Shown piece by piece: positions 4,464 to 31,956 of a DNA stretch of 32,000 bases (its first letter is position 1; each line of letters starts with the position of its first letter). Both the position numbers and the translations under genes were made by a program. Source of the stretch: Tannockella kyphosi (GTDB lineage Bacteria > Bacillota_I > Bacilli_A > Erysipelotrichales > Coprobacillaceae). The stretch is taken from positions 1,170,001 to 1,202,000 of the forward strand of contig NZ_CP088239.1 of the NCBI RefSeq assembly GCF_021054785.1, in the 5' to 3' direction. Under the pieces are notes generated by a model. That model did no database searches, was not told where the DNA came from, and saw only the letters and a program-made list of their open reading frames with translations.

Positions 4464-4467
4464 AAAA

Positions 4468-11208: not shown

Positions 11209-12246
11209 TTAATCTTTAAGAAGCATGATATTTGATTTTGCAACCGCTATAACGCCTTGACTTTCTTTTATTTGTGCAAATTTATCTTTTGATACTTCCA
11301 TTACAAAAGATAATTCTCCACCTCTAGGAACAATCGTTAAAAGGTAACTAAACAATCTTTCCGTAACATCTTGAATATGAAAATGAAAAGTAACAATCGA
11401 ATCATCTTCTATATCACTAGCATCGATATAATAGAAGTCATTTGCACGAATCCCCACATAACGAAACAATCGTGAAGTAGGATAATGGAATCGAAGATTT
11501 AATTGTTCTATTACGATAAATTCCCCATCTAATCTAGCAGGATATAGATTTTGACATCCTGTTAGTATCGCACTATCATAGGTTTGTGGATTTAAAAACA
11601 ATTCATGTTTTTCTTTCATAGCAAGATTTGATCCATTTGTAATAACAGAAACCTTATGACTAAGTCGATATACTTCATCTCGATTATGAGAAACAAATAG
11701 AACAGTCTTTCCATATTCTTCTAATGTTTGGAATAGCTCTTTTTCTAACTTATATTTTAAGAAACTATCTAATGCTGAAAATGGTTCATCTAACAAGATA
11801 ATAGTAGGACATGTAACAATCATACGAGCAAGTGCACAACGTTGTTTCTGTCCACCAGACAATTGATCAGGATATTGATGTTGTTGGCGTGTAAGTTGAT
11901 AATCTTCTAATACTTGGTCTAGTGTTTTGTGACAAGTTGGTTGATAAGCAATTGCTATATTTTGACGAACCGTCATATTAGGAAATAATGCATAGTCTTG
12001 AAACAACAAACCCACGTGACGTTCTTGTGGTGATAAATCGATTTTTTTCTCACTATCAAAGTATATACAATCATCTACCACAATAGTCCCAGAATCAGGC
12101 TTTTCAACACCTGCAATGCAACGTAGAATCAGGCTCTTTCCAGAACCAGAAGCTCCTAGAAGTGATAAAATCTCATTTTCACCAAAAAATTCAATATCCA
12201 ATTTAAAATTATCAAACTCTTTTTTTATCTTACAATAAATAGACAT
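11209..12246 (-). CDS. modC: Molybdate ABC transporter ATP-binding protein
   Basis: Walker A GASGSGKS, signature LSGGQKQRCALAR, Walker B ILLDEPFSALD and a C-terminal regulatory-type extension. The ATG at 12246 has AGGAGG 7 nt upstream, whereas the ORF-track start at 12252 is a GTG. Confidence 0.85.
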   Translation of the reverse strand: MSIYCKIKKEFDNFKLDIEFFGENEILSLLGASGSGKSLILRCIAGVEKPDSGTIVVDDCIYFDSEKKIDLSPQERHVGLLFQDYALFPNMTVRQNIAIAYQPTCHKTLDQVLEDYQLTRQQHQYPDQLSGGQKQRCALARMIVTCPTIILLDEPFSALDSFLKYKLEKELFQTLEEYGKTVLFVSHNRDEVYRLSHKVSVITNGSNLAMKEKHELFLNPQTYDSAILTGCQNLYPARLDGEFIVIEQLNLRFHYPTSRLFRYVGIRANDFYYIDASDIEDDSIVTFHFHIQDVTERLFSYLLTIVPRGGELSFVMEVSKDKFAQIKESQGVIAVAKSNIMLLKD

Positions 12247-12269
12247 AATCACTCCTCCTCCCTATTCTT

Positions 12270-12923
12270 TTACTTATCTTTTTCTAACATATTCACTGTT
12301 AACATAACAGCAAATGAAATAACTAAGTTAATCATTACCCAAAACATTGCCTGTGAGTCTTGCCCAGTCTGCCAATAGTAAGCAACAGTTGTTGAAATAG
12401 TTGCGGTACTGTTTTGAATAAAACCTGAAACCATCGATGTTGCACCATATTCACCAAGCCCTCGTGCAAAAGATAGAACAAAACCAGCAACAATTCCTGT
12501 CCGACAATTTGGTAGGATTATTTTACGGAAAATAACAGAGTTCTTTAGCCCCAATGTCTTTCCTGCATAGATCAGATTCTTATCCAGTTGCTCAAAAGAT
12601 CCTCTTGCTGTCCGATACATAATCGGAAATGTGATAATAATAACTGCAAAAATGGACGAATACCAAGTCATTGTTAATGTAATACCAAAATATTCATTAA
12701 TAATCGAACCTAAAAGACCATTAGGAGCAATAAACATAAGTAATATAAATCCAACTACAGTTGGTGGAAGTACCATTGGAATCGTTAATAGTGCATCTAA
12801 AACACCTTTGTATCCTCTTGGTAACTTAGTAATATAAAACGCAAACAAAACACCTAATATCAAAGTGAAAACACTTGATATTAGAGATATTCTTATTGAA
12901 TTATAAAGAGGAAATAAATCCAT
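12270..12923 (-). CDS. modB: Molybdate ABC transporter permease
   Basis: 217 aa with 5-6 TM segments and an EAA-like loop (YAGKTLGLKNSVIFRKIILP). It sits between modA and modC. Confidence 0.88.
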   Translation of the reverse strand: MDLFPLYNSIRISLISSVFTLILGVLFAFYITKLPRGYKGVLDALLTIPMVLPPTVVGFILLMFIAPNGLLGSIINEYFGITLTMTWYSSIFAVIIITFPIMYRTARGSFEQLDKNLIYAGKTLGLKNSVIFRKIILPNCRTGIVAGFVLSFARGLGEYGATSMVSGFIQNSTATISTTVAYYWQTGQDSQAMFWVMINLVISFAVMLTVNMLEKDK

Positions 12924-12947
12924 ATGTACACCACCCTTTCTATTTGG

Positions 12948-13760
12948 TTACTTTGCAGTAATTAATACTAATTCATTTGATAACAATTCATAGACATTAT
13001 CCTCATCAATATAACCTAACTCCTCTAGTGTCTCTACTTCACTAGTTGATGCTGATATAAAAATATCCGTTATAGCACCATATTGAATCTGTGATGATAA
13101 TGTCCCACTTGAATCAAAACTTGCTATAATCTCTACTCCTTCATGTTCTTCCATAAACATGTTCGAAATCTCACTAATCGACTCCATTAAACTAGCAGCA
13201 GCAAAAATAGTAATAGTACAAGCTTCTAACTCTACTTCTTGTTCTATTGATTCTTCTGGCAAATAGGTAAATCCATTTTCTTCAAAAATAGCTATTGCAG
13301 TTGCTGTTGTTAAATAGTCCATAAAACATTGAACTGCTTCTTGATTCATTGAATCATTCATAATAGCAGCTGGATAAATAACAGGACTCTCTAATAAAGA
13401 ACTATCGATTGTTTCAACTACATAAACACCATCACTTGTAATAGCATCCGTTGCATATACAATACCACAACTAACAGACCCTAGTTCTACTTGAGATAGC
13501 ACTTCTTTTACACTACTGGCATAAGAAATTTTACTTTCAATTTCATCCCATATACCATAATTTACTAAAGCTTCTTTGGCATAACGGCCAACTGGTACAT
13601 CATCATTACCAAGAGCGATAAGGGATACACTATCTGTTGTTAAATCTAAAAGAGATGTAAGAGTAGTTTCTTGATTACTTGTATTTGCACTACATCCATT
13701 CAGTAGTATCATTGTAGCTATTAAGAAAGTTACTGTTATATTTTTTATGTTTACTTTCAT
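12948..13760 (-). CDS. modA: Molybdate-binding lipoprotein ModA, circularly permuted
   Basis: Lipobox LLNGC. All ModA motifs are present but in swapped order (see finding). The ATG at 13760 is preceded by GAGGAGGGG, whereas the ORF-track start at 13781 is a TTG. Confidence 0.85.
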   Translation of the reverse strand: MKVNIKNITVTFLIATMILLNGCSANTSNQETTLTSLLDLTTDSVSLIALGNDDVPVGRYAKEALVNYGIWDEIESKISYASSVKEVLSQVELGSVSCGIVYATDAITSDGVYVVETIDSSLLESPVIYPAAIMNDSMNQEAVQCFMDYLTTATAIAIFEENGFTYLPEESIEQEVELEACTITIFAAASLMESISEISNMFMEEHEGVEIIASFDSSGTLSSQIQYGAITDIFISASTSEVETLEELGYIDEDNVYELLSNELVLITAK

Positions 13761-13789
13761 TATCTTCCCCTCCTCATTCAATTATCTTT

Positions 13790-17296: not shown

Positions 17297-18376
17297 TCAT
17301 TCCTCCCTAATAAAAGCATTCCTTATTTTTTCTTCTACCTTTAATGCTTGTAAATATCGTTCTTGATGTTTTTCAATTGCTTCTTGCGTGCAACATTTAC
17401 GAAGACTTGCTTCAAATCTTTGTTGTAAGGATACCCTTAATGTTCCTTGTACTAATTTATCTGCATAATACAAAATCATTGCCTCATCTAATAATGCATC
17501 ACCTTTGATATCATGATGAAGTTGGATAATAGACCCTAATTGAATATATCCTAAATGATATAATTGTTCCTTTGCTAGTAATGGATGATCTTTGCCATGA
17601 TGACGCATCATATCATGTAACAAAGCACTAGTTAGAAGCAATTCTTTATCCAATGAACATTGATCTTTTAATAATTCATATAATTCAAGGCAAACACGTT
17701 GTACCTCATAGCTATGTTCTATGACTACTTGTGGTGTTTTACATTGAAAGAATATTTGTTCTATTTCTTGATGACTAGGGATTGAATCCCTTTTTTTATT
17801 TATTGCAACAAAGTTCCACTTCTTTTCCTCTATTTCCACTACACTAAGAGTTCCATAATCAACACGTGGCATTCCATCTTTACAAGGATCTAAATTTTCT
17901 AATTTATGTACTAACGCTCGTATTAATCCATCATGAATAACAAGCACTAAGTCACTAGATTTATTTAAAAGTAAGAACTGTATTGTTTTGATAAGGCGGT
18001 TTACACCATCTTCTAATGTCTCCCCATTACTAGGGACTATCGACCAATCTTTTCCTCTTTGTTGATAAAGAGTTGGATATAGTTCTTGAATTTGTTGGAA
18101 TGTCTTTCCTTCAAAATCTCCCATATCTAATTCTTGCAAAGAAACAATTGGTTGATATTTTTGTTGAACAGAAACCATTTCTAAAGCACTTTGATAACTC
18201 CTTGCTAGATTACTACAATAAATAGTGTCGATGTTTGAAAAACAATCTTTCCATACTCTTACTTGTTCTTTCCCTTCTTTTGATAAAAACAAGTCTGTTT
18301 GACTACCTATACAGATTTTCTTTCCCTCTTTAAATAGTGGTTTTCCATGACGAATTAAATAAACATATCTTTTCAT
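17297..18376 (-). CDS. Fusion protein: histidine-phosphatase (PGM/CobC-like) N-domain + HD-domain phosphohydrolase C-domain
   Basis: N-domain: YLIRHGKP (RHG motif), SNLARSYQSA, VIHDGLIRAL. C-domain: ALLHDMMRHHGKDH...QLHHD...YYADKL, the HD metal-binding pattern resembling YqeK-type HD hydrolases. Confidence 0.7.
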   Translation of the reverse strand: MKRYVYLIRHGKPLFKEGKKICIGSQTDLFLSKEGKEQVRVWKDCFSNIDTIYCSNLARSYQSALEMVSVQQKYQPIVSLQELDMGDFEGKTFQQIQELYPTLYQQRGKDWSIVPSNGETLEDGVNRLIKTIQFLLLNKSSDLVLVIHDGLIRALVHKLENLDPCKDGMPRVDYGTLSVVEIEEKKWNFVAINKKRDSIPSHQEIEQIFFQCKTPQVVIEHSYEVQRVCLELYELLKDQCSLDKELLLTSALLHDMMRHHGKDHPLLAKEQLYHLGYIQLGSIIQLHHDIKGDALLDEAMILYYADKLVQGTLRVSLQQRFEASLRKCCTQEAIEKHQERYLQALKVEEKIRNAFIREE

Positions 18377-18389: not shown

Positions 18390-19232
18390 CTACTGCTTTA
18401 TAATAATTGCAGTTCCATGCAAATCACAAAGTTCTACTAATACCAATGATCCATATTCTTTTTCATAATCCTCAACTGCTTTTTTAACTCCTTGAAATCT
18501 TTGATTCCCATAATCATGTAATAAAATAATAGCTCCTTTATTCATTCTTTTAATAAACCACTTTAATCCTTCATAAGTAGGTGTATAAAGATCTACATCA
18601 ATACTAACTAAAGCAAAGGTTTCTTCTATCCCGATTGTTGTATCTGGAAAATAACCTTCTTTTATAATTACCTGACTAGGATTCGATAATTTTTCTAAAA
18701 CCATTTGAATACTAGTATTTTGAAATTCTTCTTTATATGCTTTTGATAATCCTGTTTCATTTTCCATTTGAATATCTCGTTCATCAAAACCATTAAATGT
18801 ATCAAATAAATATAATTTTCTTCTAGGAAAAACTGCATTTAATACTTTAGAGAATTCTCCTTGAAAAACTCCTAATTCCGCTACTGCTCCTTCGATATCT
18901 TTTAATCTATCTTTTAATTTGATAGTAAAAGCACTACGAATATCAATTGCTTCTATTAATTTGGTTATTTCAATAATTTCTTTATTATAACCATTATGAT
19001 GTAATTGTTTGATTATTTCAGTTTGACGTTCTATTCCTGTAACAGCCACTAAAATAACATCAATAGGCAATAATAATGCTTCTTCCATTGTATAAAGAGG
19101 AATATTTTTAATCATTGTTTGTTCTTTCTTTGCATTATCACCAAAACCTATTAAATGATAATGTTTTTGATTGATGAGAGGTAATACTGCTTGACCCATC
19201 TGTCCTGCTCCAAAAATTAATAAATTTTTCAT
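18390..19232 (-). CDS. TylF/MycF-family class I SAM-dependent O-methyltransferase with an N-terminal Rossmann-like extension
   Basis: ELGVFQGEFS...LYLFDTFNGF...SIDVDLYTPTYEGL...ILLHDY matches the macrocin-O-methyltransferase family pattern. The N-terminus is LLIFGAGQMGQAV. The ATG at 19232 follows AGGGGGA and the upstream TAA. Confidence 0.65.
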   Translation of the reverse strand: MKNLLIFGAGQMGQAVLPLINQKHYHLIGFGDNAKKEQTMIKNIPLYTMEEALLLPIDVILVAVTGIERQTEIIKQLHHNGYNKEIIEITKLIEAIDIRSAFTIKLKDRLKDIEGAVAELGVFQGEFSKVLNAVFPRRKLYLFDTFNGFDERDIQMENETGLSKAYKEEFQNTSIQMVLEKLSNPSQVIIKEGYFPDTTIGIEETFALVSIDVDLYTPTYEGLKWFIKRMNKGAIILLHDYGNQRFQGVKKAVEDYEKEYGSLVLVELCDLHGTAIIIKQ

Positions 19233-19233
19233 T

Positions 19234-20160
19234 TTATTCCCCCTTACCAAAATGCTTTGTGAATGATTGTTCACTAAAAGCAGTAACTTCTTCTATATAC
19301 ATTTCATATTTATTTAATAATTCTTTTCCTTCTTTAGTAAGACTACTTGTACCTCCATATTCTCCTCCTTGCCTTCTTTCCAACAAAGAAAAACCAAAAG
19401 CCTGTTCCATTTCTTTAATCATTATCCAAGCTTTACTATAAGAAATACCAATTTTATCACATGCATCTTTTACTGTTCCTGTATATTCAATAGCTTGTAA
19501 TAAAACAGTAGAGGTTTTATCTAATATCTTTTTTTCTCTAATAATAGAAATATCAATAATTGGTCTTAATAACTGTTCACTATGCATTTTTACTAAACGT
19601 TCATAATCACCCATCGTATCAGCATCTCTTAAAACACCTTCATCATCTACTTGTAAAATATCAATTTTAGGACAACATTCATAAATCATTGCTTTTAAAC
19701 CATCATTTCTTTTACAAGCGATTATTTTTGGTAATATTTTATTAGAAAATAGGATTGGATGACCATCTTCATTATCACAAACAGGTTTAATAAAATCGAC
19801 ATTCGTTTGCATCAATCTACGTACTGTACCTACCGTAAACAAAGGAACATCTACTGGTGTAAAGAAAACTCGATCACATTTATCTAATAGAAATGAAAAT
19901 CCCATTTTTGCTGAATCAGACATTTGTGTTGTTTCATAGGAATCATTACGAATATAAATAACACCTTGTTTTGCAATATGTTTTTCTAATTCTGCTGCCC
20001 GATATCCTGTTACTACCACAATTGGTGATACTCCCGCTTGTTGAAAGTTTGCAATAATTCTTTTTACAATCGTAATAGAACCCATTTTCATCATTGGTTT
20101 AAATTCACCCATTCTACTAGACATCCCAGCTGCTACAATCACAGCTCCTGTTCTTTGCAT
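19234..20160 (-). CDS. Fusion: MocA/MobA-like molybdenum cofactor nucleotidyl(cytidylyl)transferase + ModE-N-type winged-helix DNA-binding domain
   Basis: The N-terminus AVIVAAGMSSRMGEFKPMMKMG is the MobA-like NTP-transferase P-loop. C-terminal residues about 200-290 read GTVKDACDKIGISYSKAWIMIKEMEQAFGFSLLERRQGGEYGGTSSLTKEGKELL. These align with E. coli ModE ISQGAKDAGISYKSAWDAINEMNQ...VERATGGKGGGGAVLT. No Mop/TOBE domain is present. Confidence 0.8.
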   Translation of the reverse strand: MQRTGAVIVAAGMSSRMGEFKPMMKMGSITIVKRIIANFQQAGVSPIVVVTGYRAAELEKHIAKQGVIYIRNDSYETTQMSDSAKMGFSFLLDKCDRVFFTPVDVPLFTVGTVRRLMQTNVDFIKPVCDNEDGHPILFSNKILPKIIACKRNDGLKAMIYECCPKIDILQVDDEGVLRDADTMGDYERLVKMHSEQLLRPIIDISIIREKKILDKTSTVLLQAIEYTGTVKDACDKIGISYSKAWIMIKEMEQAFGFSLLERRQGGEYGGTSSLTKEGKELLNKYEMYIEEVTAFSEQSFTKHFGKGE

Positions 20161-20264: not shown

Positions 20265-22616
20265 TTAGATAAGTGTTTCCACAAAATCTCTTACCATTGT
20301 ACGTAAGGATTCTACTTTATAACCATTATCTCTCATTACCATGACATTTTCCACTGCCACTTCACTAGCTTTTAACGCTAATTCTTTGCTTGGAACTTGT
20401 CCTTTTAATACTTCTTCTACTGCACTTGCACGGAATGGAACTGGTGCAACTCCACCAAATACCAAACGAATATCTTCAATAGTTCCATCTACAACTTTAA
20501 TATCACTAGCAACTGCTACTAATGCAAAGTCAATTGCTTTACGTAAACGGAATTTAGCATAATCACTCTTCCATCCATCTCTTGAAGGAATATGAATTGC
20601 TTTTACTAATTCTCCTCTTTCAAGTTTATATTCTGGACGTAATTTATCGCTAAAGAATTCTACTCCAGATAATGTACGTACTGTTGTTTCTACAGTTACA
20701 TCTAAAGCTAATAACATATTGGCCATATCAGAAGCGTTCGAAGAATAACATCCACAGTTCATACAACGGCTTGCTTCTACTGCTGCTTCCATTTCTGTTA
20801 ATGAACTAGAATCTTCTACATCTAAACAACGTTTTTCTACTGGTGTATCCACTAATTGAGATGCTTTTACTAATTTTACTCCTTCAGGATCAAATGTTAA
20901 GAAAGCTTCTTTTTCAATTTCTAAAACCATTGGCATACCCATGTATTTTGTCATATTTCTAGCTGCATTTCCTCCAGCACGAACTGCTTGAATAGCTAAA
21001 GAAGGTCCTGTTGCAACATCACCACCAGCATAAACACCAGCATGACGTGTATCATTATGTTCTCCAACTTCAATTAATCCTCTTACTGATTGAATTTCAT
21101 CTTTAAAATGATCTCCTAAGAAATCCAAATCAACTCTTTGACCTGTTGCTAGGATAATACTTGGTGTTTCAATAAATGAAACATCTGCTTCATCATATAC
21201 AGGACTAAAACGTCCTTTTTCATCAAATACATGAAGACATTTTTTAGTTTCTAATCCTAATACTTTATCACCTTCATAACGAACTTTGTTTAATCCAAGT
21301 CCATTTAAGATAATAACACCTTCTTCTAATGCACGATCTACTTCTTCTTTTGATGCTGGCATTTGTTCTCTTTGTTCTAGACAAACTAAAGTAACTTTCT
21401 TAGCTCCCAAACGTTTTGCTGTTAATGCTACGTCCATCGCAACATTCCCACCACCACATACTAATACTTCTTCGTCAATTTTACTTGTCATCCATTGTTT
21501 TACTTCAACTAAGAAATTTAAACCAAATTGAGTTAAATTTTCACCATCAATTCCTAAAATAGGTTGTTTCCATGCTCCTGTATCGATGAACACTGTATCA
21601 AAAGTTTCTTCTACTTCTTCAAAAGAAATATCTTCTCCTACTGTTGTATTAAATTTAAATACAACTCCCATACCTTCAATAGCACTATTATATTCACGCA
21701 TTAATGCTTTTGGTAAACGATATTCTGGTATACCGTACATTAATACCCCACCAGCTTCTGGCATTTTTTCAAAAATTGTTACTGCATGTCCCATTTTTCT
21801 TAAATAGAATGCGGCTGCTAATCCTGCTGGACCACTACCTACAATCCCAACTGATTTTCCTGATTCACTACTTGGTGCAGGGAAATAAGTTGATTTATTT
21901 TTCAAGATATAATCACCTAATGTACGTTCAACTGCATGAATATTAACAGAATCACCATGGTTACTTTGATTACATTTTGTTTGACAAGTATGAGGACAAA
22001 CTCTACTTGTTAACATTGGCATTGGGTTTGCACGTAATATTATTTTGGCAGCTCCATCCCAATCACCTTGTCTAATTTTTTCCATATATCCAGAGATATC
22101 AGTTCCAGCTGGACATTCATTACTACATTTTGTACGAGCTGTTTTCATACCTCCAAAAATACTATGATAACGATTATCTCCTAATACTGCATAGCATAAA
22201 TCCCCATCTTTACGTGCACAATCAAGGCGGCCACCTTGGTTATGCGGATAACGATAATACCAACAACGTACATCTTGGCAAATATTACCACCAATAGTCG
22301 CTGCATTACGGATAATAGGTGTTGCAACGCTGTTAGCAGCTTTGCGTAAACCTGTTGGAACAGATTCATCATCAGATATTTCTGACAATGTATTCATTGC
22401 ACCTAGTACGATAGAACCATCTTCATTAACTGTAGTTTCTTTAGCACCTATTGTTTTAAGATCAACTACAACATCAGGAGTTTTTTCTAATATGGCTGAT
22501 TTCATCAAGCCAACAAGATCCGTACCTCCAGCAATGGAAGTCCCACTTTTTGACACTTTGATAAGTTCTGAGGCTTCTTCAAATGTCTTTGCTTCTTTAT
22601 GTTCAAACTTTCTCAT
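20265..22616 (-). CDS. Module 1 flavoprotein: CoxM/XdhB-type FAD-binding subunit with an inserted four-Cys loop and GltD-like NAD(P)H:FAD/Fe-S oxidoreductase module
   Basis: N-terminal part: FAD_binding_5-like (SIAGGTDL, ATIGGN). Central part: GltD-like CSNECPAGTDI...NPMPMLTSRVCPHTCQTKC, GIVGSGPAGLAAAFYL, VCGGGNVAMDVA, YAGGDV. C-terminal part: ASDMANMLLALD plus a CO_deh_flav_C-like tail (VFGGVAPVPFRA). Confidence 0.85.
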   Translation of the reverse strand: MRKFEHKEAKTFEEASELIKVSKSGTSIAGGTDLVGLMKSAILEKTPDVVVDLKTIGAKETTVNEDGSIVLGAMNTLSEISDDESVPTGLRKAANSVATPIIRNAATIGGNICQDVRCWYYRYPHNQGGRLDCARKDGDLCYAVLGDNRYHSIFGGMKTARTKCSNECPAGTDISGYMEKIRQGDWDGAAKIILRANPMPMLTSRVCPHTCQTKCNQSNHGDSVNIHAVERTLGDYILKNKSTYFPAPSSESGKSVGIVGSGPAGLAAAFYLRKMGHAVTIFEKMPEAGGVLMYGIPEYRLPKALMREYNSAIEGMGVVFKFNTTVGEDISFEEVEETFDTVFIDTGAWKQPILGIDGENLTQFGLNFLVEVKQWMTSKIDEEVLVCGGGNVAMDVALTAKRLGAKKVTLVCLEQREQMPASKEEVDRALEEGVIILNGLGLNKVRYEGDKVLGLETKKCLHVFDEKGRFSPVYDEADVSFIETPSIILATGQRVDLDFLGDHFKDEIQSVRGLIEVGEHNDTRHAGVYAGGDVATGPSLAIQAVRAGGNAARNMTKYMGMPMVLEIEKEAFLTFDPEGVKLVKASQLVDTPVEKRCLDVEDSSSLTEMEAAVEASRCMNCGCYSSNASDMANMLLALDVTVETTVRTLSGVEFFSDKLRPEYKLERGELVKAIHIPSRDGWKSDYAKFRLRKAIDFALVAVASDIKVVDGTIEDIRLVFGGVAPVPFRASAVEEVLKGQVPSKELALKASEVAVENVMVMRDNGYKVESLRTMVRDFVETLI

Positions 22617-22632
22617 ATAAGACTCCTTCTCT

Positions 22633-24954
22633 CTAGATTTTTCCTAATGCTTTTAAAATAACTTGAGGTGTTGCTGGATACTCACGCACTTTTACACCGA
22701 TAGCGTTTGATATCGCCATTAGTACAGCTCCTGGAGCTGCTGCTCCTGTGATTTCTCCTACACCTAATGCTTTAATTGGACTAACATTGAATTGTGATTC
22801 TAACATTGTTTCAGGTCCAAACTCTGGGAATTGATTAAATGGTCTCATTTTATAATCAATTGTATTCGCAGTAAGAACTCTTCCTGTATAAGGATCTAAT
22901 ACATGCCCTTCAAATAAAGCAGTATCTAATCCTGCTGAACCAATACCACCTTGGTATTGTAATTTTAATTGTACTGGGTCAATAACTTGTCCAACATCTG
23001 ATCCACCACCACATTTAGTAACTTCTACATATCCTGTATCTAAATCTACTTCTACTTCTACAAAGTTAATAAAGAAGTTTGGTGTAGTGAAGTCTTCACG
23101 ATATTCACCAAATCCAGTAATAGTAGAGAATACATCTGGTAATGCAGCAATAATAGGGATTGGATCCATTTTTTCACCTTTAATCGTGATGAAACCATCT
23201 CTAAATTGTAATGCTTGAGGTGGTACTTGGTTGTGGAATATCTTTTCACTTGCATTTATTAAGATGTTATTGTAACAATCTTTTGCAGCATTCCATATTG
23301 CAGATTCTGTACATTTTGTACCTCTGGCACCTTCTAATCCGAAGTCACCTGGTGTCGTCATTGTATCTGCTGGTGTTACAGTTACTTTATCAAAACTTGA
23401 ATAAAGTGCTTCAGCTGCAACTTTTGCCATCGCATTTCTTTGACCTTGACCAAATTCAGAAGCTCCATTATGAACAAAGATATAACCTAATTGGTCAATA
23501 CGTACATAAGCAGTTGAGTTATCTTCACCAGCATCGGCATTAAGATGTAATGAAGTACCTACACCTGTTACTTTGTTTCCTTCTACTTTTGTTGGTTTTA
23601 ACCAACCTTTCCATAAATCATCCCATCCAAATTCATCCGCAATTTTACGAATTGCAGGTGGATAATTTACTTCACGACAAATATAATCATGTCCATCTCT
23701 CCAAGTATATAAATCTCCTGGAGTTACAACATTTTTCATAAATCCTTCAATTGGATCCATATCAATAGCCATCATTGCATCTTGGAATAAAGGCATGATT
23801 GCACATTTCATTTCTTGCCCACCAAATCCACGTACAGCACTTGAATAAGTTCTGTTTGTAGCAATAATGTGAGAATGAACATTCCAGTTTTTACATTTAT
23901 TCATAACTAATTGAACTTCACCTAACCCTACTGAACCAATACCTTGAGTAAGGTCACTATGGAAACCAGTATCAATAACGATATCTGCATCTACTAAATT
24001 AATAATACCTTCTTTTGTAATACCAACACGTCCTTTTACAATAGTACCAAGTCTTTGGTCATAATTGATTAAATGGTCTTGTTTAGTAAGTTCCCATTTT
24101 ATTGGGGCATTGTTACATGCACGAGAACATGCAGCAGTAAAGAAAATTTGTTCTACTAATGTTACTTTATGACCAAAACTTCCACCTACATTAAATGCTT
24201 TGGCATTAATTAAGATTCCGTTCATGTTCATAGAAGCACATGTTCTAAGTAAATGAGGCGATTGGCTTGTTGCCCAAACAGATAAGGAACCATCATCTTC
24301 CCAACGAGAAGTCATGGAAGGATTTTCAATTGGTAATGGTGTTGGGAACTTATCATATTTTACTTCTCCCTCTACAATTACTTCACTACTTTCTTCTCCT
24401 TCTTTTACATCTCCACGAACTATTTTATAAAATGGATCTCCCCCATGGTCGAAAATAAAGCATCCTGGTGGGAACTTATTACCTGGGAATGTGAAATCAT
24501 CATCCTCATCATATAATTGTACTGCATCTGGTTTCATCGCTTCTAAAGGATCAAAAACAGCTGGTAATACATCATATTCTACTTTAATTAATTCTAATGC
24601 TTCTTCAGCAATTTCTACTGTTTCTGCTGCACATAATGCAACAGCATCACCGACATAACGAAGATGCTTATCAAGGACATATTTTTGGTGTGGTAATCCA
24701 GTACACCATGATTTATCAATATCTTTGTATGTCAATACACAACGTACCCCAGGGTATGCTCTAGCAGCTTCTACATCAATGCTTTTAATACGAGCATGAG
24801 GATGTGGTGATTTTAAAGCACGAAGATATAATAAGCCAGGTAATGTTTCATTGTAATCATCTACATAAATTGTACTACCAGTTACGATCCCTTTACCATC
24901 TTTACGATATGTTGGTTTACCGAGATATCTGTATTCTTCTTTTACTTCTTCCAT
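22633..24954 (-). CDS. Module 1 molybdopterin-binding large subunit (xanthine dehydrogenase/aldehyde oxidase/CoxL family)
   Basis: a/b-hammerhead N-terminus (GKPTYRKDGKGIVTGSTIYVDD, LKSPHPHARI). Motifs GGSFGHK, VRGFGGQE and C-terminal GVGEITGAAAP. The ATG at 24954 lies 8 nt after GGAGG. The ORF-track start at 24957 is a GTG. Confidence 0.9.
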   Translation of the reverse strand: MEEVKEEYRYLGKPTYRKDGKGIVTGSTIYVDDYNETLPGLLYLRALKSPHPHARIKSIDVEAARAYPGVRCVLTYKDIDKSWCTGLPHQKYVLDKHLRYVGDAVALCAAETVEIAEEALELIKVEYDVLPAVFDPLEAMKPDAVQLYDEDDDFTFPGNKFPPGCFIFDHGGDPFYKIVRGDVKEGEESSEVIVEGEVKYDKFPTPLPIENPSMTSRWEDDGSLSVWATSQSPHLLRTCASMNMNGILINAKAFNVGGSFGHKVTLVEQIFFTAACSRACNNAPIKWELTKQDHLINYDQRLGTIVKGRVGITKEGIINLVDADIVIDTGFHSDLTQGIGSVGLGEVQLVMNKCKNWNVHSHIIATNRTYSSAVRGFGGQEMKCAIMPLFQDAMMAIDMDPIEGFMKNVVTPGDLYTWRDGHDYICREVNYPPAIRKIADEFGWDDLWKGWLKPTKVEGNKVTGVGTSLHLNADAGEDNSTAYVRIDQLGYIFVHNGASEFGQGQRNAMAKVAAEALYSSFDKVTVTPADTMTTPGDFGLEGARGTKCTESAIWNAAKDCYNNILINASEKIFHNQVPPQALQFRDGFITIKGEKMDPIPIIAALPDVFSTITGFGEYREDFTTPNFFINFVEVEVDLDTGYVEVTKCGGGSDVGQVIDPVQLKLQYQGGIGSAGLDTALFEGHVLDPYTGRVLTANTIDYKMRPFNQFPEFGPETMLESQFNVSPIKALGVGEITGAAAPGAVLMAISNAIGVKVREYPATPQVILKALGKI

Positions 24955-24957
24955 CAC

Positions 24958-25452
24958 TTATTCCTCCTTTCCATTAATTGAGCTAATTGCTTCTAAAACA
25001 CGATATTGACTAATACATCTGCATAAATTTCCTGATAATGCTTCAGAAATATCTTCTTCTGTAGGGTTTGGATTACGGATAAATAAAGCTCTAGCCGCAA
25101 TTACAATACCTGGTGTACAGAATCCACATTGGAATGCAGAATAATCAAAAATAGCTTGTTGAATAGGGTCTAATTTCCCAGTTACTGGATCAGCAAGACC
25201 TTCAATTGTAACGATCTTCTTCCCTTCACATTCCACTGTTAAAGTGACACATGAAGCTTCTGCTTTATCGTCAATAAGCACTGCACAAGCACCACAGCAC
25301 CCTTCACCGCAACTTAATTTTGTACCTGTTAATCCAAGACGTTCACGAATTGTATTTACCAATAATTCATTGGTAGGAATTTGCCCCATCTTGTCGCCAA
25401 TCATAAATTCATAGTCTTTACCATTGACATTTAGTGTTACAGTATCTCTCAT
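24958..25452 (-). CDS. Module 1 [2Fe-2S]x2 small subunit
   Basis: Contains CGEGCCGAC...C and FQCGFCTPG...CRC motifs. AAGGAGG RBS. Confidence 0.93.
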   Translation of the reverse strand: MRDTVTLNVNGKDYEFMIGDKMGQIPTNELLVNTIRERLGLTGTKLSCGEGCCGACAVLIDDKAEASCVTLTVECEGKKIVTIEGLADPVTGKLDPIQQAIFDYSAFQCGFCTPGIVIAARALFIRNPNPTEEDISEALSGNLCRCISQYRVLEAISSINGKEE

Positions 25453-25590: not shown

Positions 25591-26244
25591 ATGACACAAC
25601 CAACTAAAAAACAAATAACACATGAAAAGATACTAACAAGTGCCATCTACTTATTTTCAATTTATGGTTACGAAGGCACTACCACTCGTATGCTTTCAAA
25701 AGAATCTGGATATAATATTTCAACTATTTTCCATCATTTTGAAAACAAAGAAGGTTTATATATTGCCGCCATGAATCATATGGCCCAAGAAATGAATAGC
25801 CATTTACTCCCAACAACGATCAAAGTAAATAAACGACTTGAAGAAGAGTGTTCTATTGAAGAAGCATGGGAATTAATTGAAGAATTCATTACACTTCTTG
25901 TTATGACATTATCTAGTCCTACTCAAAAGAATACATTCTTTCTACTAATCAGAGAACAAACTAGTCCTCCAAAAGGAGACTTCCCACTCTCTCGAGTAAT
26001 CTATGACAATGTAGAACATCCAATTAAAAACTTACTTCAAAGAATATACCCAGATATAACTCATACTACCCTTGCTTTGCATGCTAGAATGATTACTGGT
26101 GGAATCATTTCCCAAGTAGAACACCCAGTGTTTTTACGCTGGATGTTAGGTCTACCAGACGACGCTGATATAAAACCTCGTGTTTGGGAAAAAGTAAAAG
26201 ATTTATGTATGATATATATAAATACCGATTTAAATAACGATTAA
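25591..26244 (+). CDS. TetR/AcrR-family transcriptional regulator
   Basis: The N-terminal HTH region ILTSAIYLFSIYGYEGTTTRMLSKESGYNISTIFHHFENKEGLY is classic TetR_N. Confidence 0.9.
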   Translation: MTQPTKKQITHEKILTSAIYLFSIYGYEGTTTRMLSKESGYNISTIFHHFENKEGLYIAAMNHMAQEMNSHLLPTTIKVNKRLEEECSIEEAWELIEEFITLLVMTLSSPTQKNTFFLLIREQTSPPKGDFPLSRVIYDNVEHPIKNLLQRIYPDITHTTLALHARMITGGIISQVEHPVFLRWMLGLPDDADIKPRVWEKVKDLCMIYINTDLNND

Positions 26245-26705
26245 GCGTGTGGTGGAATACCAAGCGCTTTTTTTACTAATGGAATACCTGTACATAATCC
26301 AATATTTTGTGATAACCAAGTTAAGAATAATGATAATGGATAAGATGCTACTACTGATGCTACATAGAAATCTTGGTAACCAGGAACATCTTTCATTCCC
26401 CACCAAGTCATGAATGAACTCATAATAGTAGCCATAATTAATGCCACTAATACAGTAGATACTAATTGATGTTTAATATCTCTTCTGTCTAATTTAAATA
26501 AATCACCAAACTTATTCCCTAAAGGAGCAATTGGTAAGAATGTCATTAAAATAAACCCTATAATAACACCTAATACATAACTACTTGCAAAACTAGATAA
26601 TGTTAAACCTGTTCCATTTGCAATAGGTACAATTGTATTTAAGAAAATATTTAAAATCAACGATACCCACGCATTTAATAATACATCAAACTTTGTTATT
26701 TTCAT
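26241..26705 (-). CDS. Small integral membrane protein (about 4 TM, two-repeat appearance; possibly DUF2798-like)
   Basis: 154 aa with four hydrophobic segments. GGGAGG lies 7 nt before the ATG at 26705. Its stop overlaps the TetR stop. Confidence 0.55.
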   Translation of the reverse strand: MKITKFDVLLNAWVSLILNIFLNTIVPIANGTGLTLSSFASSYVLGVIIGFILMTFLPIAPLGNKFGDLFKLDRRDIKHQLVSTVLVALIMATIMSSFMTWWGMKDVPGYQDFYVASVVASYPLSLFLTWLSQNIGLCTGIPLVKKALGIPPHA

Positions 26706-26722
26706 TTGTCTGCCTCCCATGA

Positions 26723-26777: not shown

Positions 26778-29144
26778 TTATTTTACTGCTAAAATATTAC
26801 GAATTACTAAAGCTTTGATTTCAGTAATTTTATAATTATTATGTTCCATTGCAATTGCATCTTTAATAGCAAGAGCTCCAGCACTTTCAGCTACTTCTTC
26901 ACTAATCGCTTTACCTTTTAAGAAAGCTTCTACTTCATCTAATTTATATGGTACTGGTGCAACTCCACCTAATACTAATTTAGCATCTTCAATAACTCCA
27001 TCTACTACTTTGAAAGCAGAAGATAAACTTACGATTGCAAAATCCATCCCATCACGGACACGGAATTTATCATAACTAGAAGTATATCCTTCTAATACTG
27101 GTACTTGAATTTCAGTTACTAATTCACCATGTTCTAACATATCTTTTGTTTTTAGTTTTGTAGTAAAGAAGTCAACAGCTTTGATTTCTTTTTTAGTAGT
27201 AACAATTGTTCCATCTAACATCACTAATACTGGTGAAATATCAGAAGCATTTACTGAGTAACATCCACAATTCATACAACGTTTTGCTTCTTTTGAAGCT
27301 AATTCAAGAGATAATGATTTTTCATCTTCATCCACTAATGTACGACTAGCTACAGGAAGTTCTTCTAACTTACAAGATTCTTCTACTTTTACACCTTCTA
27401 CATCAAAAGTCTTATAACCTTTTTCAGATGCTTCACGTTTGATTGGATATCCCATTTTTGCACTCATAGAATGAGCTGCTAAGTTACCTGCATGAATTGC
27501 ACGAATTGCAATATTAGGTCCTGTAACAACATCCCCACCTGCAAAGAATTTTTCATTTTTAGTTTGATAAGTTTCTTCATCTACTTCTAATAAACCACGT
27601 TCTGATTTAATTTGAGAAGCGAACTCATCACCTAAGAAGTCTACGTCTACACGTTGACCTGTTGCTAAGATAATACTATCTGATGTAAATACAGTAGTTT
27701 CATCATGATCATATACTGGTGCAAAACGATTTTTTTCATCAAAAACACTTACGCATTTCATTGATTCTAAACCACTTACTTTTCCATCGGCATCTTTGAT
27801 AACACCTTTTAGACCCCAACCATTTTCAATTTCAATACCTTCTTCTAAAGCTCTTGCAATTTCTTCTTTTGTTGCAGGCATTGCTTCTCTTGATTCAAGA
27901 CATACTAATTTAACACTCTTAGCTCCTAAACGTCTTGCTGTTAATGCTACGTCCATCGCAACATTACCACCACCACAAACTAATACGTTTTCACCAGTAG
28001 CTTTTTGTAAGAATGTATTTACATCTTGTAAGAAGTCTAAACCAAATTGAGTTAATTCTTCTCCTGTAATACCTAATACTGGTTGTTTCCAAGCACCTGT
28101 ACCAAAGAATACAGTATCAAAACGCCCTTCCACTTCTTCCATTGATATTTCTTTACCAACAGTAGTATTCATTTCAAAAGTAACTCCCATACCTTCCAAA
28201 GCACTTGCATATCCTTCTACAATATCCTTAGGTAAACGATAATGAGGAATACCATACATTAATACCCCACCAGCTTTTTCATGAGAATCAATCACAGTAA
28301 CACTATGTCCTTGACTTCTTAAATAATAAGCAGCAGTTAAACCACCAGGACCAGCTCCAATAATACCAACAGATTTACCTGTTTCAGCTTTTGGTGCTAC
28401 ATAGAATTTTTCTTTATTTTCTAAAATATAATCTCCTAATGTACGTTCCACACAGTGAATAGCTACGCTATCACCATTTTTATCATGGTTACATCTGTCT
28501 TCACAAGGATGTGGACAAATTCTTGAAGTACACATTGGCATTGGGTTTACACGCATAATTATTTTTGCAGCTTCATCCCAGTTCCCTTTTCTAATTTCAC
28601 CCATATAAGAGGAAACATCAGTTCCAGCAGGACAACCTTTTGTACAAGCACTAGTTACAATTTTCATACCACCAAATACAGAATGATAACGATTTTCTCC
28701 TAATACTGCAAAACATTCTTCTCCACCTTTTTGTTGACATACCATTTTCCCACCAACATCTTCAGGATAACGATAATACCAACAACGAACATCTTGACAA
28801 ACATTCCCACCAATAGTTGCAGAATTACGAACTAATGGAGTTGCTACCGATTTTGCAGCTTGGCTTAACGCTGGTGCCCCAGCTAATAATTCTTCTGATT
28901 TTTCTAAGCAACCTAACTTTGTGATAGCACCAATTTTAATAGTCCCATCTTGTGCAGTTACATAAGATCCACCATCTACTTTTCTTAAACTTACTAATTC
29001 TTCTGGATATTTTGTTAAAATATCACTTTTTAATTCAAAAATTAAATCTGTACCACCAGAAACTGGTACACTATTTTCATTTGCTTTTATTATTTCTGCA
29101 GCTTCATCAAATGATTTTGCAGATTTGTATCCAAATTTTTTCAT
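26778..29144 (-). CDS. Module 2 flavoprotein: same CoxM-FAD / four-Cys loop / GltD-like mosaic as module 1
   Basis: Collinear with 20265-22616: VSGGTDL, ATIGGNVCQDVRCWYYRYP, CTKGCPAGTDV, IIGAGPGGLTAAYYL, VCGGGNVAMDVA, FAGGDV, CMNCGCYS, ASDISPVLVMLD, LGGVAPVPYK. Confidence 0.85.
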   Translation of the reverse strand: MKKFGYKSAKSFDEAAEIIKANENSVPVSGGTDLIFELKSDILTKYPEELVSLRKVDGGSYVTAQDGTIKIGAITKLGCLEKSEELLAGAPALSQAAKSVATPLVRNSATIGGNVCQDVRCWYYRYPEDVGGKMVCQQKGGEECFAVLGENRYHSVFGGMKIVTSACTKGCPAGTDVSSYMGEIRKGNWDEAAKIIMRVNPMPMCTSRICPHPCEDRCNHDKNGDSVAIHCVERTLGDYILENKEKFYVAPKAETGKSVGIIGAGPGGLTAAYYLRSQGHSVTVIDSHEKAGGVLMYGIPHYRLPKDIVEGYASALEGMGVTFEMNTTVGKEISMEEVEGRFDTVFFGTGAWKQPVLGITGEELTQFGLDFLQDVNTFLQKATGENVLVCGGGNVAMDVALTARRLGAKSVKLVCLESREAMPATKEEIARALEEGIEIENGWGLKGVIKDADGKVSGLESMKCVSVFDEKNRFAPVYDHDETTVFTSDSIILATGQRVDVDFLGDEFASQIKSERGLLEVDEETYQTKNEKFFAGGDVVTGPNIAIRAIHAGNLAAHSMSAKMGYPIKREASEKGYKTFDVEGVKVEESCKLEELPVASRTLVDEDEKSLSLELASKEAKRCMNCGCYSVNASDISPVLVMLDGTIVTTKKEIKAVDFFTTKLKTKDMLEHGELVTEIQVPVLEGYTSSYDKFRVRDGMDFAIVSLSSAFKVVDGVIEDAKLVLGGVAPVPYKLDEVEAFLKGKAISEEVAESAGALAIKDAIAMEHNNYKITEIKALVIRNILAVK

Positions 29145-29158
29145 TTTCGTCTCCCCCC

Positions 29159-31450
29159 TTACGCTTTACCTAAAGCTTTTAAAATTGCTGCAGGTGTTGC
29201 AGGATATTCAATAAAGTCTTTTCCAATTGCGTTAGAAATAGCCATTGAAACTGCTGAAGGACCAGGAGCACCTGAGATTTCTCCAAATCCAATTGCTTTG
29301 AATGGAGATATATCATATTGTGATTCTAAGATTACGGAATTGAATTCAGGGAATTCATTAAATAATCTCCACTTGTAATCAATCATATTAGCAGTCATTA
29401 AACGACCTTGTGTTGTATCTAAGACATGTCCATCAATTAAACCTGTGTCTAATGCTGCAGAACCAATACATCCTTGGAATTGTAATTCTAATGTTGCTGG
29501 ATCTAACATTTGACCTACATCAGTACCACCAGTTACATTAATTAATGTAGTTTCTCCAGTATCAGTATCTACTTCTACTTCTACAAATAACATACAGAAG
29601 TTAGGAATAGCAAATTGTTCTTCATATTTACCAACTCCAGTCATTGTATGACCAAATCCAATGATTGGCATCCAAGGAACACGTACTTCTGGTTTATCTT
29701 TTAAATAAATAAATCCATCTTCCGTATCTACTGCTTCTACTGGGCAGTGTAAGAATGCTGCACCTTTTTCTAATAATTCTTGTTTTACTTTTTTAGCAGC
29801 TTCCCCAACTGCAGTACTTACAACGATAGTCCCTCTTGATCCTACTAATCCAAATTCATGAGGATTTACTAAGTTATCTGCATCTGTAATTCTTACTTTT
29901 TCAAAAGGCATATTTAAGATTTCTGCTGCTGCTTTAATAGCTTGGTTTCTTTGCCCTTGTCCTGCTTCTGCTACTGTACAATGTACAACTGCATACCCAT
30001 AAGGTTCCAAACGAACATATGCTTCTGAACAGTCTTCACCAACATCACAGTTACCATGTAAACCGACACCAACACCACGTACTTTTGAACCATTTACAGA
30101 AGTTGGTTTATACCATCCTTTGAATTTGTCAGCCCACTCAAATTTTTGTGCTGCTTGAGTCATAGCTGGACGATAGTCTGCATATTTACATACCCAGTTA
30201 GTACCATCTCTCCAAGTATATGGATCTCCTTCTTTTACAAAGTTGTTTTTATAAAATTCTACAGGATCTAAATCAAGTTTGGCTGCACATTGTGAAATAA
30301 TAGGCATTAACGCTGATTTTAATTCTTGTCCACCAAATCCACGAACTACCCCTGCAGGTTCTTTGTTTGTATAATAAATATCTGCTTTAAAGTCCCAGTT
30401 TTTACACTTAGCACATACTAATTGCATTTCTCCTAGACCTACACCCATTTGTGCTTGTCCAATATCATTACAACTTCCTGTGTCAATCATCCAGTTCCCT
30501 TGCATTGCATGAACTAAACCATCTTTAATACCAACCTTCAAAGTCATATGAGAACCTAAACGAGTTTCATAAGCTAATAATTGTTCTGATTTCGTATAAA
30601 TGAATTTTACAGGTCTATTTGTTACTAACGCTAATGCGGATGCATGCATACACATACAAGTAATGTGATTTTTATTACCATAAGAACCACCTACGTTGAA
30701 ACTTTCAGAACGTACAATAACATCTGGCATTTTTGTTGATAATTGAATTCTAAGTAAGTTTGGACTTTGACTAGAAGCTCTAATATATAAGTTTCCTGGT
30801 TCTGTCCATTGTGCTAATACTGCAGGTGTTTCCGGAGCTAATGGTGCATGAGATGCACTATATGATGCAGTTCCTTCTACAACAGCGTCACATTCTTCAA
30901 ACGCTGATTCTACATCACCTTTATCAATATGTTTAAACTCTACCCCATGTTCTCCTAATGGAAACCCTGGTAATCCAATCCCATAAGGAACTTTGTTTCC
31001 AGGAATATGATCATAAAATTGAATTGCATCTGGTTGTGATGATTCCATCGGTGTATAATATGGTTTTAATATTTCATATTCTACCTTAATTAATTTTAAT
31101 GCTTCTTCCGCAATTTCAGGAGTTTCCGCAGCAACGGTTGCAACTGGATCCCCTACATAACGAAGTCTACGATCAAAAATTGGTTTATGATATGGAAATC
31201 CTAAAGACCATTCTTTACATTCTTCTGGTAAGTTTTCCAAACATAAAACAGCTTTAACCCCATCCACTTTTTGTGCTTCACTAATATCAATACTTACGAT
31301 ATTTGCATGAGGATGTGGACTTTTTAACATTTTTGTATATAACTGACGAGGTAAGTTATAGTCATCTAGAAAAGTTGCTCTACCTGTTACGATATCTCTT
31401 GCTTCTCTTCTTGGTGTGTTCTTACCGACATAACGATAATCTGGTTTCAT
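29159..31450 (-). CDS. Module 2 molybdopterin-binding large subunit (XDH/CoxL family)
   Basis: Motifs GKNTPRREARDIVTGRATFLDD, LKSPHPHANI, GGSYGNK, VRGFGGQE and GFGEISGAPGP. The start ATG shares one nucleotide with the stop of the small subunit (TAATG). Confidence 0.9.
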   Translation of the reverse strand: MKPDYRYVGKNTPRREARDIVTGRATFLDDYNLPRQLYTKMLKSPHPHANIVSIDISEAQKVDGVKAVLCLENLPEECKEWSLGFPYHKPIFDRRLRYVGDPVATVAAETPEIAEEALKLIKVEYEILKPYYTPMESSQPDAIQFYDHIPGNKVPYGIGLPGFPLGEHGVEFKHIDKGDVESAFEECDAVVEGTASYSASHAPLAPETPAVLAQWTEPGNLYIRASSQSPNLLRIQLSTKMPDVIVRSESFNVGGSYGNKNHITCMCMHASALALVTNRPVKFIYTKSEQLLAYETRLGSHMTLKVGIKDGLVHAMQGNWMIDTGSCNDIGQAQMGVGLGEMQLVCAKCKNWDFKADIYYTNKEPAGVVRGFGGQELKSALMPIISQCAAKLDLDPVEFYKNNFVKEGDPYTWRDGTNWVCKYADYRPAMTQAAQKFEWADKFKGWYKPTSVNGSKVRGVGVGLHGNCDVGEDCSEAYVRLEPYGYAVVHCTVAEAGQGQRNQAIKAAAEILNMPFEKVRITDADNLVNPHEFGLVGSRGTIVVSTAVGEAAKKVKQELLEKGAAFLHCPVEAVDTEDGFIYLKDKPEVRVPWMPIIGFGHTMTGVGKYEEQFAIPNFCMLFVEVEVDTDTGETTLINVTGGTDVGQMLDPATLELQFQGCIGSAALDTGLIDGHVLDTTQGRLMTANMIDYKWRLFNEFPEFNSVILESQYDISPFKAIGFGEISGAPGPSAVSMAISNAIGKDFIEYPATPAAILKALGKA

Positions 31451-31956
31451 TATTCTTCGCCTCCTGAATTTTCAGCTACATATTTTACTGCATCAATAAC
31501 ATGATATTGGCTAATACAACGACAATAATTTCCTGATAAGCCTTCTTTGATTTCATCATCATTTGGATGTGGATTTTTATTTAATAACGCTTTTGCTGCC
31601 ATGATAATACCTGGTGTACAAAAACCACATTGAAATGCATAATAATCAATAAATGCTTGTTGTAAAGGATCTAGTTCACCAGTTACTGGATCTTCTAATC
31701 CTTCAATTGTAACGATAGAACTTCCATCACAATCTAAAGTAAGTGTGTTACAAGAAGTAATTGCATCACCATCCATAATAACAGTACAGCAACCACATGC
31801 TCCTTCCCCACAAGACTCTTTTGAGCCAGTTAATCCGATTCGTTCACGTAATGTAAACGATAATGTTTCAGAACATGCCACTTGGCCGTGTCCATCTCCT
31901 ACTGAGAAAGCATATTCTTTTCCATTAACAATAATACTAATCATACTTGCTTCCAT
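31450..31956 (-). CDS. Module 2 [2Fe-2S]x2 small subunit
   Basis: Motifs CGEGACGCC...C and FQCGFCTPG...CRC. AGGAGG RBS upstream of the ATG at 31956. Confidence 0.92.
   Translation of the reverse strand: MEASMISIIVNGKEYAFSVGDGHGQVACSETLSFTLRERIGLTGSKESCGEGACGCCTVIMDGDAITSCNTLTLDCDGSSIVTIEGLEDPVTGELDPLQQAFIDYYAFQCGFCTPGIIMAAKALLNKNPHPNDDEIKEGLSGNYCRCISQYHVIDAVKYVAENSGGEE

Follow-up and report, generated by a model that had tools for sequence, protein, structure and literature searches.

Can a substrate-binding protein carry the two halves of its sequence in reversed order and still serve its transporter in the ordinary way, and what becomes of its hinged, two-lobed fold if it does? Hinge bending is the textbook property of substrate-binding proteins, which also serve as the main scaffold of genetically encoded sensors, a field in which circular permutants are made by hand. 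The question is raised here by a modA gene in a 32,000-nucleotide stretch of the Tannockella kyphosi genome (RefSeq assembly GCF_021054785.1, contig NZ_CP088239.1, positions 1,170,001 to 1,202,000 of the forward strand), referred to below as the window. An initial annotation, made from the letters alone, described the product as a circularly permuted form of the molybdate-binding protein ModA; it omitted the strand, which is the minus strand. The evidence set out below leads us to regard the protein, with a probability of about 0.85, as a functional, naturally circularly permuted, lipid-anchored ModA that serves the adjacent ModB2C2 importer.

Swapped order of the two ModA segments

Two stretches of the protein match ModA, and they do so in the wrong order. 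In a phmmer comparison with the sequences of PDB chains, residues 181-269 matched residues 6-94 of the C. difficile ModA (4kd5) with an independent E-value of 3.9e-10, and residues 29-165 matched residues 94-230 of the same chain with an independent E-value of 3.1e-24, so that the segment that comes second in the query comes first in the structure. The ModA of E. coli (1amf) behaved likewise, its residues 4-90 and 114-231 corresponding to query residues 182-269 and 47-165, respectively, and the PDB sequences of ten further ModA structures gave the same swapped pattern. The alignment to ModA structures that the initial annotation had proposed as a check has thus returned two swapped stretches and not collinearity. 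When the sequence was re-ordered (181-270 followed by 29-168), a single collinear stretch, 3-227 against 8-230 of 4kd5, replaced the two; its only gap, of two residues, fell at the junction, and the score rose from 132 to 144 bits. These comparisons establish a true circular permutation, as had been claimed, and at the sequence level essentially no residues were lost or gained at the cut.

The profile models of the family recognize the protein in the same divided manner. TIGR01256 (modA) scored 148.2 bits against a cutoff of 62.5 and Pfam SBP_bac_11 scored 144.6 against a cutoff of 25, each summed over two stretches; the stricter NF007958 model gave 154, below its cutoff of 253. The collinear order from β1 to α10 with both termini in lobe A is not the one found in the window protein. 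It is nevertheless confirmed as a member of the ModA family in permuted, non-collinear order, because the profile score, the ligand residues, the fold and the operon all place it there and only the collinearity implicit in the family fails.

Position of the cut and fate of the hinges

In the A. baumannii protein, AbModA, lobe A is built from β1α1β2α2β3α3β4 together with β10α9α10, and lobe B from β5α4β6α5α6β7α7β8α8β9 (PMC11734730); in the P. aeruginosa protein, PaModA, the two short hinges lie at Gly104-Thr105, the β4/β5 junction, and at His209-Ile212, the β9/β10 junction (PMC9171197). An AlphaFold2 model of the window protein (predicted local distance difference test score, pLDDT, 90; predicted template-modelling score 0.79) gave the element order α4 β6 α5 α6 β7 α7 β8 α8 β9, followed by β10 α9 α10, the linker, β1 α1 β2 α2 β3 α3 β4 and finally β5. 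Rotated cyclically, these 20 elements fall into exactly the order seen in the model of the nearest canonical relative (P0086), and equally into that of the published AbModA scheme (PMC11734730). The linker has no regular secondary structure in the model (pLDDT 83-90), and the signal peptide has a low pLDDT, as expected for such a region.

Both hinges were placed by transfer from PaModA. For hinge 1, Gly104-Thr105 was carried over by way of the offsets between ligand residues, and the model has a strand break at 262-263; for hinge 2, His209-Ile212 was carried over by ligand-residue offsets together with the secondary structure of the model (Table 1). In the model the cut falls in the surface loop between β5 and α4, within lobe B and one strand past crossover 1, a position at which both hinge crossovers would therefore remain covalent. 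The order of the elements indeed suggests that both are kept, hinge 1 as S261-N262-E263 and hinge 2 at about residues 118-127. On this point the initial annotation is not supported: it had put the new termini at the first inter-domain crossover itself and had concluded that the hinge topology must differ from that of standard ModA.

Element order and the superposition of the halves both argue for preservation of the type II bilobal fold with its dual hinge. What would be altered is the position of both termini, and hence of the lipid tether, which would shift from lobe A to lobe B, and the state of β5, which would become a free C-terminal strand. Strand β5 corresponds to the interior 'βn' strand of the sheet in the type II fold. 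Should this apply to the permuted protein, β5 would be expected to be held on both sides; residues 264-269, which form it, were modelled as a strand at a pLDDT of about 96.

Structure comparison with Foldseek, which depends on sequence order, gave the outcome that corresponds to the sequence matches. The permuted model aligned with 4kd5 over about 130 columns, that is, over one half, at a root-mean-square deviation (RMSD) of 1.4-1.7 Å, and with other ModA structures over 67-74 columns at 0.5-1.2 Å; its full-length alignments, to 4h1x and OpuAC, were poor (RMSD about 6 Å). The model of canonical P0086, used as a control, aligned with 4kd5 over about 230 columns, with a template-modelling (TM) score of 0.93-0.96 and an RMSD of 1.3-1.8 Å. 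The control demonstrates that the permuted model matches by halves because of the permutation and not because the model is bad.

Conservation among the permuted proteins

The proteins permuted in the same way as the window protein, hereafter type 1, were compared through 87 sequences that have diverged to about 41% identity. The oxyanion ligands of E. coli ModA are S12, S39, the NH groups of A125 and V152, and Y170, equivalent to S39, S66, V150, V177 and Y195 of AbModA (PMC11734730). By alignment, their counterparts in the window protein are S190, S218 (and S217), V57, V84 and Y102. All are invariant throughout the type-1 alignment save V57, which is present in 86 of the 87, so that the retention of the ligand positions noted by the initial annotation holds across the clade. 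The hinge residue N262 is identical in every sequence, and β5 is complete in every relative, with the chain ending 1-6 residues beyond it.

The linker behaves quite differently from the core. Its length is 16 residues in 67 of the 87 relatives and 17 in another 15, its majority fraction is 0.37 (the core has 0.74), and 22% of its residues are acidic. It had been placed correctly at nt 13221-13265, and the motifs quoted for the protein are all present. As read from the aligned sequences, this pattern of conservation points to a functional protein with a passive connector.

At the boundary between linker and β1 stands C181 (codon 13218-13220). A Cys occupies this position in 57-61 of the 87 type-1 proteins and a Gly in 16, with none found among about 67 scorable canonical relatives, which mostly have Val. 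No conserved partner Cys for C181 is evident among the type-1 proteins. It is tempting to speculate that C181 may be a relic of the lipobox of a second gene copy, or else a structural or redox feature.

At the N-terminus stands MKVNIKNITVTFLIATMILLNG-C23, a lipobox with its Cys, recognized directly from the sequence. The lipoprotein signal LLNGC of the initial annotation is upheld by the relatives, 84 of 87 of which keep the Cys column. Between this Cys and the fold, the tether varies from 7 to 57 residues within the type-1 clade, with a median of 33, and the 10 residues of the window protein are near the minimum.

Occurrence of the permuted form

Assemblies made independently from three sequencing runs (SRR26879382, SRR26879383 and SRR27046595) each contain an identical protein with identical neighbours. 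Together with the diversified clade described here, this agrees with the earlier view that the gene is neither a rearrangement scar nor an artefact; the gene is intact, with a strong ribosome-binding site (AGGAGG) and the order modA-modB-modC, also as stated before. A search of 5.8 billion proteins for homologs, in which the best 120 clusters were classified by segment order, found the permuted order in 88 and the canonical order in 32. Permuted members come from Anaerocolumna xylanovorans (Lachnospiraceae) and from metagenome-assembled genomes of Lachnospiraceae, Eubacteriales, Anaerotignaceae and Clostridia, and a genome scan placed a permuted modA on one Coprobacillaceae chromosome (Erysipelotrichia). 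The initial annotation had suggested a search for other permuted ModA proteins and their taxonomic spread, and the spread found is thus over Clostridia and Coprobacillaceae. The recurrence of the same rearranged form across many Clostridia from the gut and other anaerobic settings makes it a clean natural example of circular permutation.

Within the ModA family at large the permuted form is rare, since it accounts for only 5 of the top 150 among the roughly 13,000 ModA-like clusters of 50%-identity representatives. A survey of reference genomes, which is a sample and not a census, contained six permuted loci (L004-L009) among the best 80 of 600 stretches. A modB homolog lies directly downstream in all six, and modC comes next (the contig of L009 ends within modB). 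Within ±4 kb, none of the six had a second modA, and the permuted gene is therefore apparently the sole binding protein of its operon. All permuted members with a source name are called 'molybdate ABC transporter substrate-binding protein', that is, plain ModA, and neither NCBIfam nor Pfam has a dedicated family model for permuted ModA.

Origin of the permutation

The likeliest route to such a protein is duplication and deletion. A tandem modA-modA duplication would have been fused in frame; the first copy would then have lost its N-terminal part while retaining the signal peptide, and the second copy its C-terminal part.

A second permuted form, type 2, was found in other metagenomes and in a related ModA subfamily (P0139, P0236, L008 at 226-924 and L009 at 3883-4581). 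Its cut lies about 20 residues later than that of type 1, after helix α4. Its C-termini have the form …VVLxVPxxNPxKIxSFxDLxxxLK (VVLVVPDGNPGKINSFDDLAAALKK) and its N-terminus begins at the xxMGNSDVPVGQY strand. Type 2 also stands directly upstream of modB; modC follows in L008, and the contig of L009 stops inside modB. The two types were grouped together in 0 of 100 bootstraps, which together with their different cuts makes them independent events.

The subfamily of type 2 also contains loci with tandem fusions or trimmed copies (L084, L085, P0093 and P0087). In L084 (415-1826; ENA ERZ1048564 scaffold_1002) and L085 (3658-4909; ERZ1024293 scaffold_7276), which belong to the same subfamily as type 2, one modA copy runs in frame into another, head to tail; sequence around hinge 1 has been deleted internally, and the second copy carries a frameshift. 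Downstream of the fusion, L084 has modB, modC and a TOBE gene, and the contig of L085 ends just past the fused gene. P0093 carries, besides its signal peptide, a residual N-terminal half-copy and an entire permuted unit of type 2. L084, L085 and P0093, each known from a single metagenome scaffold, look like intermediates of a duplication/deletion process.

For type 1, a common origin is suggested by the shared cut, linker length and boundary Cys. In the full neighbour-joining tree of re-ordered sequences type 1 is monophyletic, and the window's own subclade of 11 clusters has a bootstrap of 59/60. The phylogeny was built by distance and neighbour joining only, and the single origin of type 1 was not made to depend on the tree.

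A separate case of repetition was seen in P0088, a protein of 380 residues in canonical order, in which a stretch of about 110 residues is repeated exactly (DTATRLDLLENRVTL…AGLTVV twice). Such a repeat would reflect either an internal duplication of very recent date or a fault of assembly.

Function and alternative explanations

The chain of the permuted ModA would run from the lipobox to α4, through lobe B and hinge 2 into β10, α9 and α10 of lobe A, and onward through the acidic linker of about 16 residues to β1, through the rest of lobe A and hinge 1, and with β5 back into the sheet of lobe B. The fold, the two crossovers and the five oxyanion-ligand positions would be unchanged. Such a protein would capture molybdate, and probably tungstate, between its two lobes and hand the captured oxyanion to the ModB2C2 importer encoded immediately downstream. 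Its cellular function is most likely ordinary high-affinity uptake of molybdate or tungstate, with ligand binding presumed, and its role an equally ordinary one, the supply of Mo to the adjacent island of molybdenum cofactor (Moco) and molybdoenzyme genes. Having the tether on the other lobe probably costs the protein little, because either of the two pseudo-symmetric lobes would find an equivalent docking surface on the ModB homodimer.

Several points weigh against this reading. That the protein binds and transports molybdate is something we infer, and the near-neutral relocation of the tether is argued solely from the symmetry of ModB2; the window protein's own tether, at 10 residues, is short and could constrain docking. 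The three-dimensional topology, the closeness of the new termini and the placing of β5 within the sheet of lobe B are likewise deduced from the order of secondary-structure elements in a predicted model and from homology. As to the history, the type-1 lineage to which the window protein belongs yielded no duplication intermediate, and no remnant DNA lies beside the window modA, where the spacers on the two sides measure 29 nt and 24 nt. Bootstrap values of 18/100 and 19/60 lend weak support to a single origin of type 1.

The alternatives are harder to reconcile with the data. The window's closest relatives are known only from metagenome or Logan assemblies, and on that ground the swapped order might be taken for an artefact of assembly or annotation, or for a rearrangement pseudogene in decay. 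However, the exact protein recurs with the same flanks in three independent assemblies, and at least 87 clusters share the cut with intact open reading frames (ORFs) and signal peptides, some of them on chromosome-scale contigs of 2.6-3.3 Mb. The invariant ligand residues, the tight spacing of ribosome-binding site and operon, and the confident AlphaFold model add to this, and there is hardly any chance that the order is spurious. A more substantial objection is that the cut might lie at the first inter-domain crossover after all and leave a single-stranded hinge with a different mechanism of opening and closing. Since the chain now ends only about 7 residues past hinge 1, nothing but hydrogen bonds of the sheet would hold β5 in lobe B, and the mechanical strength of hinge 1 could fall short of that in canonical ModA. 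The published lobe assignments, on the other hand, put β5 in lobe B, beyond the crossover (PMC11734730, PMC9171197), and the confident strand at 264-269, the full β5 in 87/87 relatives and the invariant Asn262 all make a single-stranded hinge very unlikely.

Nor does a change of function seem probable. The Cys at position 181, frequent among the permuted proteins (57-61 of 87) but absent from all of about 67 scorable canonical relatives, and the attachment of the tether to the other lobe could be taken as signs that the protein has been recruited for another oxyanion, for a changed affinity or kinetics, or for a sensor role. Yet the five ligand positions are invariant, the gene always stands directly upstream of modBC, no second modA occurs within ±4 kb of the permuted loci, and the neighbours encode Moco biosynthesis and molybdoenzymes; we consider such neofunctionalisation distinctly improbable. 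A broader proposal would combine a permutation that is not neutral with at least two independent permutations of ModA and surviving tandem-fusion intermediates. According to it, the free β5 and the tether on lobe B would alter dynamics, affinity or docking to ModB2 and thereby explain the retention and spread of the permuted form in anaerobic Clostridia. Taken as a whole, the combination is an unlikely one; if true, it would provide a natural stepwise series for the duplication/deletion model and for hinge mechanics in a substrate-binding protein. We therefore retain the reading of a permuted ModA with an ordinary role in uptake.

Relation to known permutations

Canonical ModA proteins (4kd5, 1amf/1wod; TIGR01256 and SBP_bac_11, cluster D type II substrate-binding proteins) are 37-40% identical to the window protein over each half. 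Common to both forms are the 10 β and 10 α elements, the five ligand positions, the dual-hinge bilobal architecture and the modABC operon. The permuted form differs in its rotated chain, which runs from α4 to β5, in the linker of about 16 residues that joins the old termini, and in having its termini and anchor on lobe B; unlike its canonical relative, which aligns over the full length, it is matched by only one half in an order-dependent structure search.

Permutation within the type II binding-protein fold has been known between OpuAC and ProX, and with respect to ModA and CysB, at less than 24% identity (CPSARST, Lo & Lyu 2008, PMC2395249). The full-length, order-dependent alignments of our permuted model with OpuAC (2b4m, 2b4l and 3chg) gave TM scores of 0.50-0.55 at an RMSD of about 6 Å and 9-13% identity, and OpuAC was not among the 50 matches listed for the canonical control, P0086, which suggests that the chain order of the permuted ModA resembles that of OpuAC. 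The likeness to OpuAC and ProX is one of fold only, with no sequence homology, and the permuted ModA is not a member of the betaine binders. Moreover, the permutations among OpuAC, ProX, ModA and CysB lie between functionally different families and were found by structure only, whereas the present one lies within one orthologous family, has canonical relatives at about 45-55% identity, a cut defined to the residue, and candidate intermediates. A literature search yielded no description of a permuted ModA, only engineered sensors and the CPSARST note on the superfamily; subscription journals were incompletely covered and the absence is no proof. Thus permutation is known at the superfamily level, and within the ModA family we found no description of it.

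Engineered permuted binding proteins (cpMBP and switch designs) have demonstrated that the bilobal fold tolerates new termini and linked old ones (PMC6335823). Those are laboratory constructs; the permuted ModA is a natural and stable lineage in a transporter operon. The duplication/deletion model of natural circular permutation, for which background is given in PMC2395249, would account for the fused modA-modA loci and the finished permutants of the sister subfamily; in the type-1 lineage no intermediate was found.

The permuted ModA offers a comparative system, with a selected and diversified lineage, canonical relatives of about 50% identity, a second cut and apparent intermediates. It can address how permutations arise and how the placement of termini and tether affects hinge dynamics and docking. 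Classical permutants attributed to duplication and deletion are found among DNA methyltransferases, saposins and swaposins, and lectins. At a practical level, the annotation of the permuted proteins as ordinary ModA, with order-dependent tools seeing only half of them, may distort alignments, trees and domain-boundary calls.

Gene layout and genomic context

The coordinates of the features are collected in Table 1. A TTG at 13781, given in the ORF list, was rejected as the start of modA; it falls within the ribosome-binding region. The spacer from the moaA stop to the modA ATG is 29 nt long, and that from modA to modB is 24 nt.

Table 1. Features of the permuted modA and its surroundings in the window (aa, amino acid residues).
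Feature	Coordinates	Strand	Description	Basis
Permuted modA coding sequence	12948..13760	minus	270 aa + stop codon; ATG start 13760-13758	ORF and sequence
Shine-Dalgarno AGGAGG	13769..13774	minus	8-nt spacer to modA ATG	read from sequence
Lipoprotein signal peptide	13692..13760	minus	aa 1-23; lipobox LLNG-C23	sequence
Tether	13662..13691	minus	aa 24-33 (SANTSNQETT); lipidated Cys to fold	sequence
Segment A	13266..13676	minus	aa 29-165, equivalent to canonical ModA ~94-230; lobe B α4 to β9, hinge 2, lobe A β10 α9 α10; ligand positions V57, V84, Y102	PDB matches, model, conservation
Hinge 2 (predicted)	13380..13409	minus	~aa 118-127, between β9 (112-117) and β10 (128-134)	inferred mapping
Linker uniting old C- and N-termini	13221..13268	minus	aa 165-180, TYLPEESIEQEVELEA, then C181	sequence
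Segment B	12954..13220	minus	aa 181-269, equivalent to canonical ModA ~6-94; lobe A β1 to β4, hinge 1, lobe B strand β5; ligand positions S190, S217/S218	PDB matches, model, conservation
Hinge 1 (predicted)	12972..12980	minus	aa 261-263 (S-N-E), between β4 (251-261) and C-terminal β5 (264-269)	mapping and model
modB permease	12270..12923	minus	217 aa; 24 nt downstream of modA	Pfam BPD_transp_1
modC ATPase	11209..12252	minus	347 aa	Pfam ABC_tran
His_Phos_1 + HD fusion	17297..18376	minus	in Moco cluster	
TylF-like methyltransferase	18390..19274	minus	macrocin O-methyltransferase family; PglD_N-like N-terminus	
MobA-like nucleotidyltransferase with HTH_1	19234..20160	minus	MobA-like domain 6-160; HTH_1 220-278	
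Xanthine-dehydrogenase-family set	20265..25452	minus	2Fe-2S, Moco-binding and fused FAD subunits; paralogous, in tandem with the second set	
FAD subunit of that set	20265..22616	minus	~785 aa	
TetR-family regulator	25591..26244	plus	divergent; between the enzyme sets	
ORF without Pfam match	26241..26720	minus	159 aa; between the enzyme sets	
Second xanthine-dehydrogenase-family set	26778..31956	minus	2Fe-2S, Moco-binding and fused FAD subunits	
FAD subunit of second set	26778..29144	minus	~785 aa	

The permuted modA is the last but two gene of a long molybdenum island on the same strand. Listed in order, the members of the island are the two xanthine-dehydrogenase-family sets, the MobA-like gene with its helix-turn-helix (HTH) domain, the TylF-like methyltransferase, the His-phosphatase/HD gene, a MoeA-like gene, XdhC, MOSC and MoaA, and then modA (permuted), modB and modC. 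The GC content of the window is uniform at about 32%, and a plasmid origin of the locus, considered as a possibility, was dropped when a megablast search of positions 11000-15000 against PLSDB gave no match. An Rfam scan of the whole window (1-32000) brought no family to its gathering score, the Moco riboswitch included; control may instead rest with proteins, namely the TetR regulator and the MobA-HTH fusion.

Some neighbouring genes have domain architectures that merit mention in their own right. In both FAD subunits a GltD-like module (Fer4_20 + Pyr_redox_2, residues ~160-550) stands between FAD_binding_5 and CO_deh_flav_C, an unusual split-domain architecture that suggests direct coupling to NAD(P)H. 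The C-terminal HTH_1 domain of the MobA-like protein is of the HTH type found at the N-terminus of ModE, and the fusion may combine cofactor maturation with regulation. The TylF-like methyltransferase is a further member of the molybdenum island. Finally, the same His_Phos_1 + HD architecture adjoins xdhC in the unrelated locus L084 (4918-5488), which hints at a conserved link of this fusion to the metabolism of the molybdenum cofactor.

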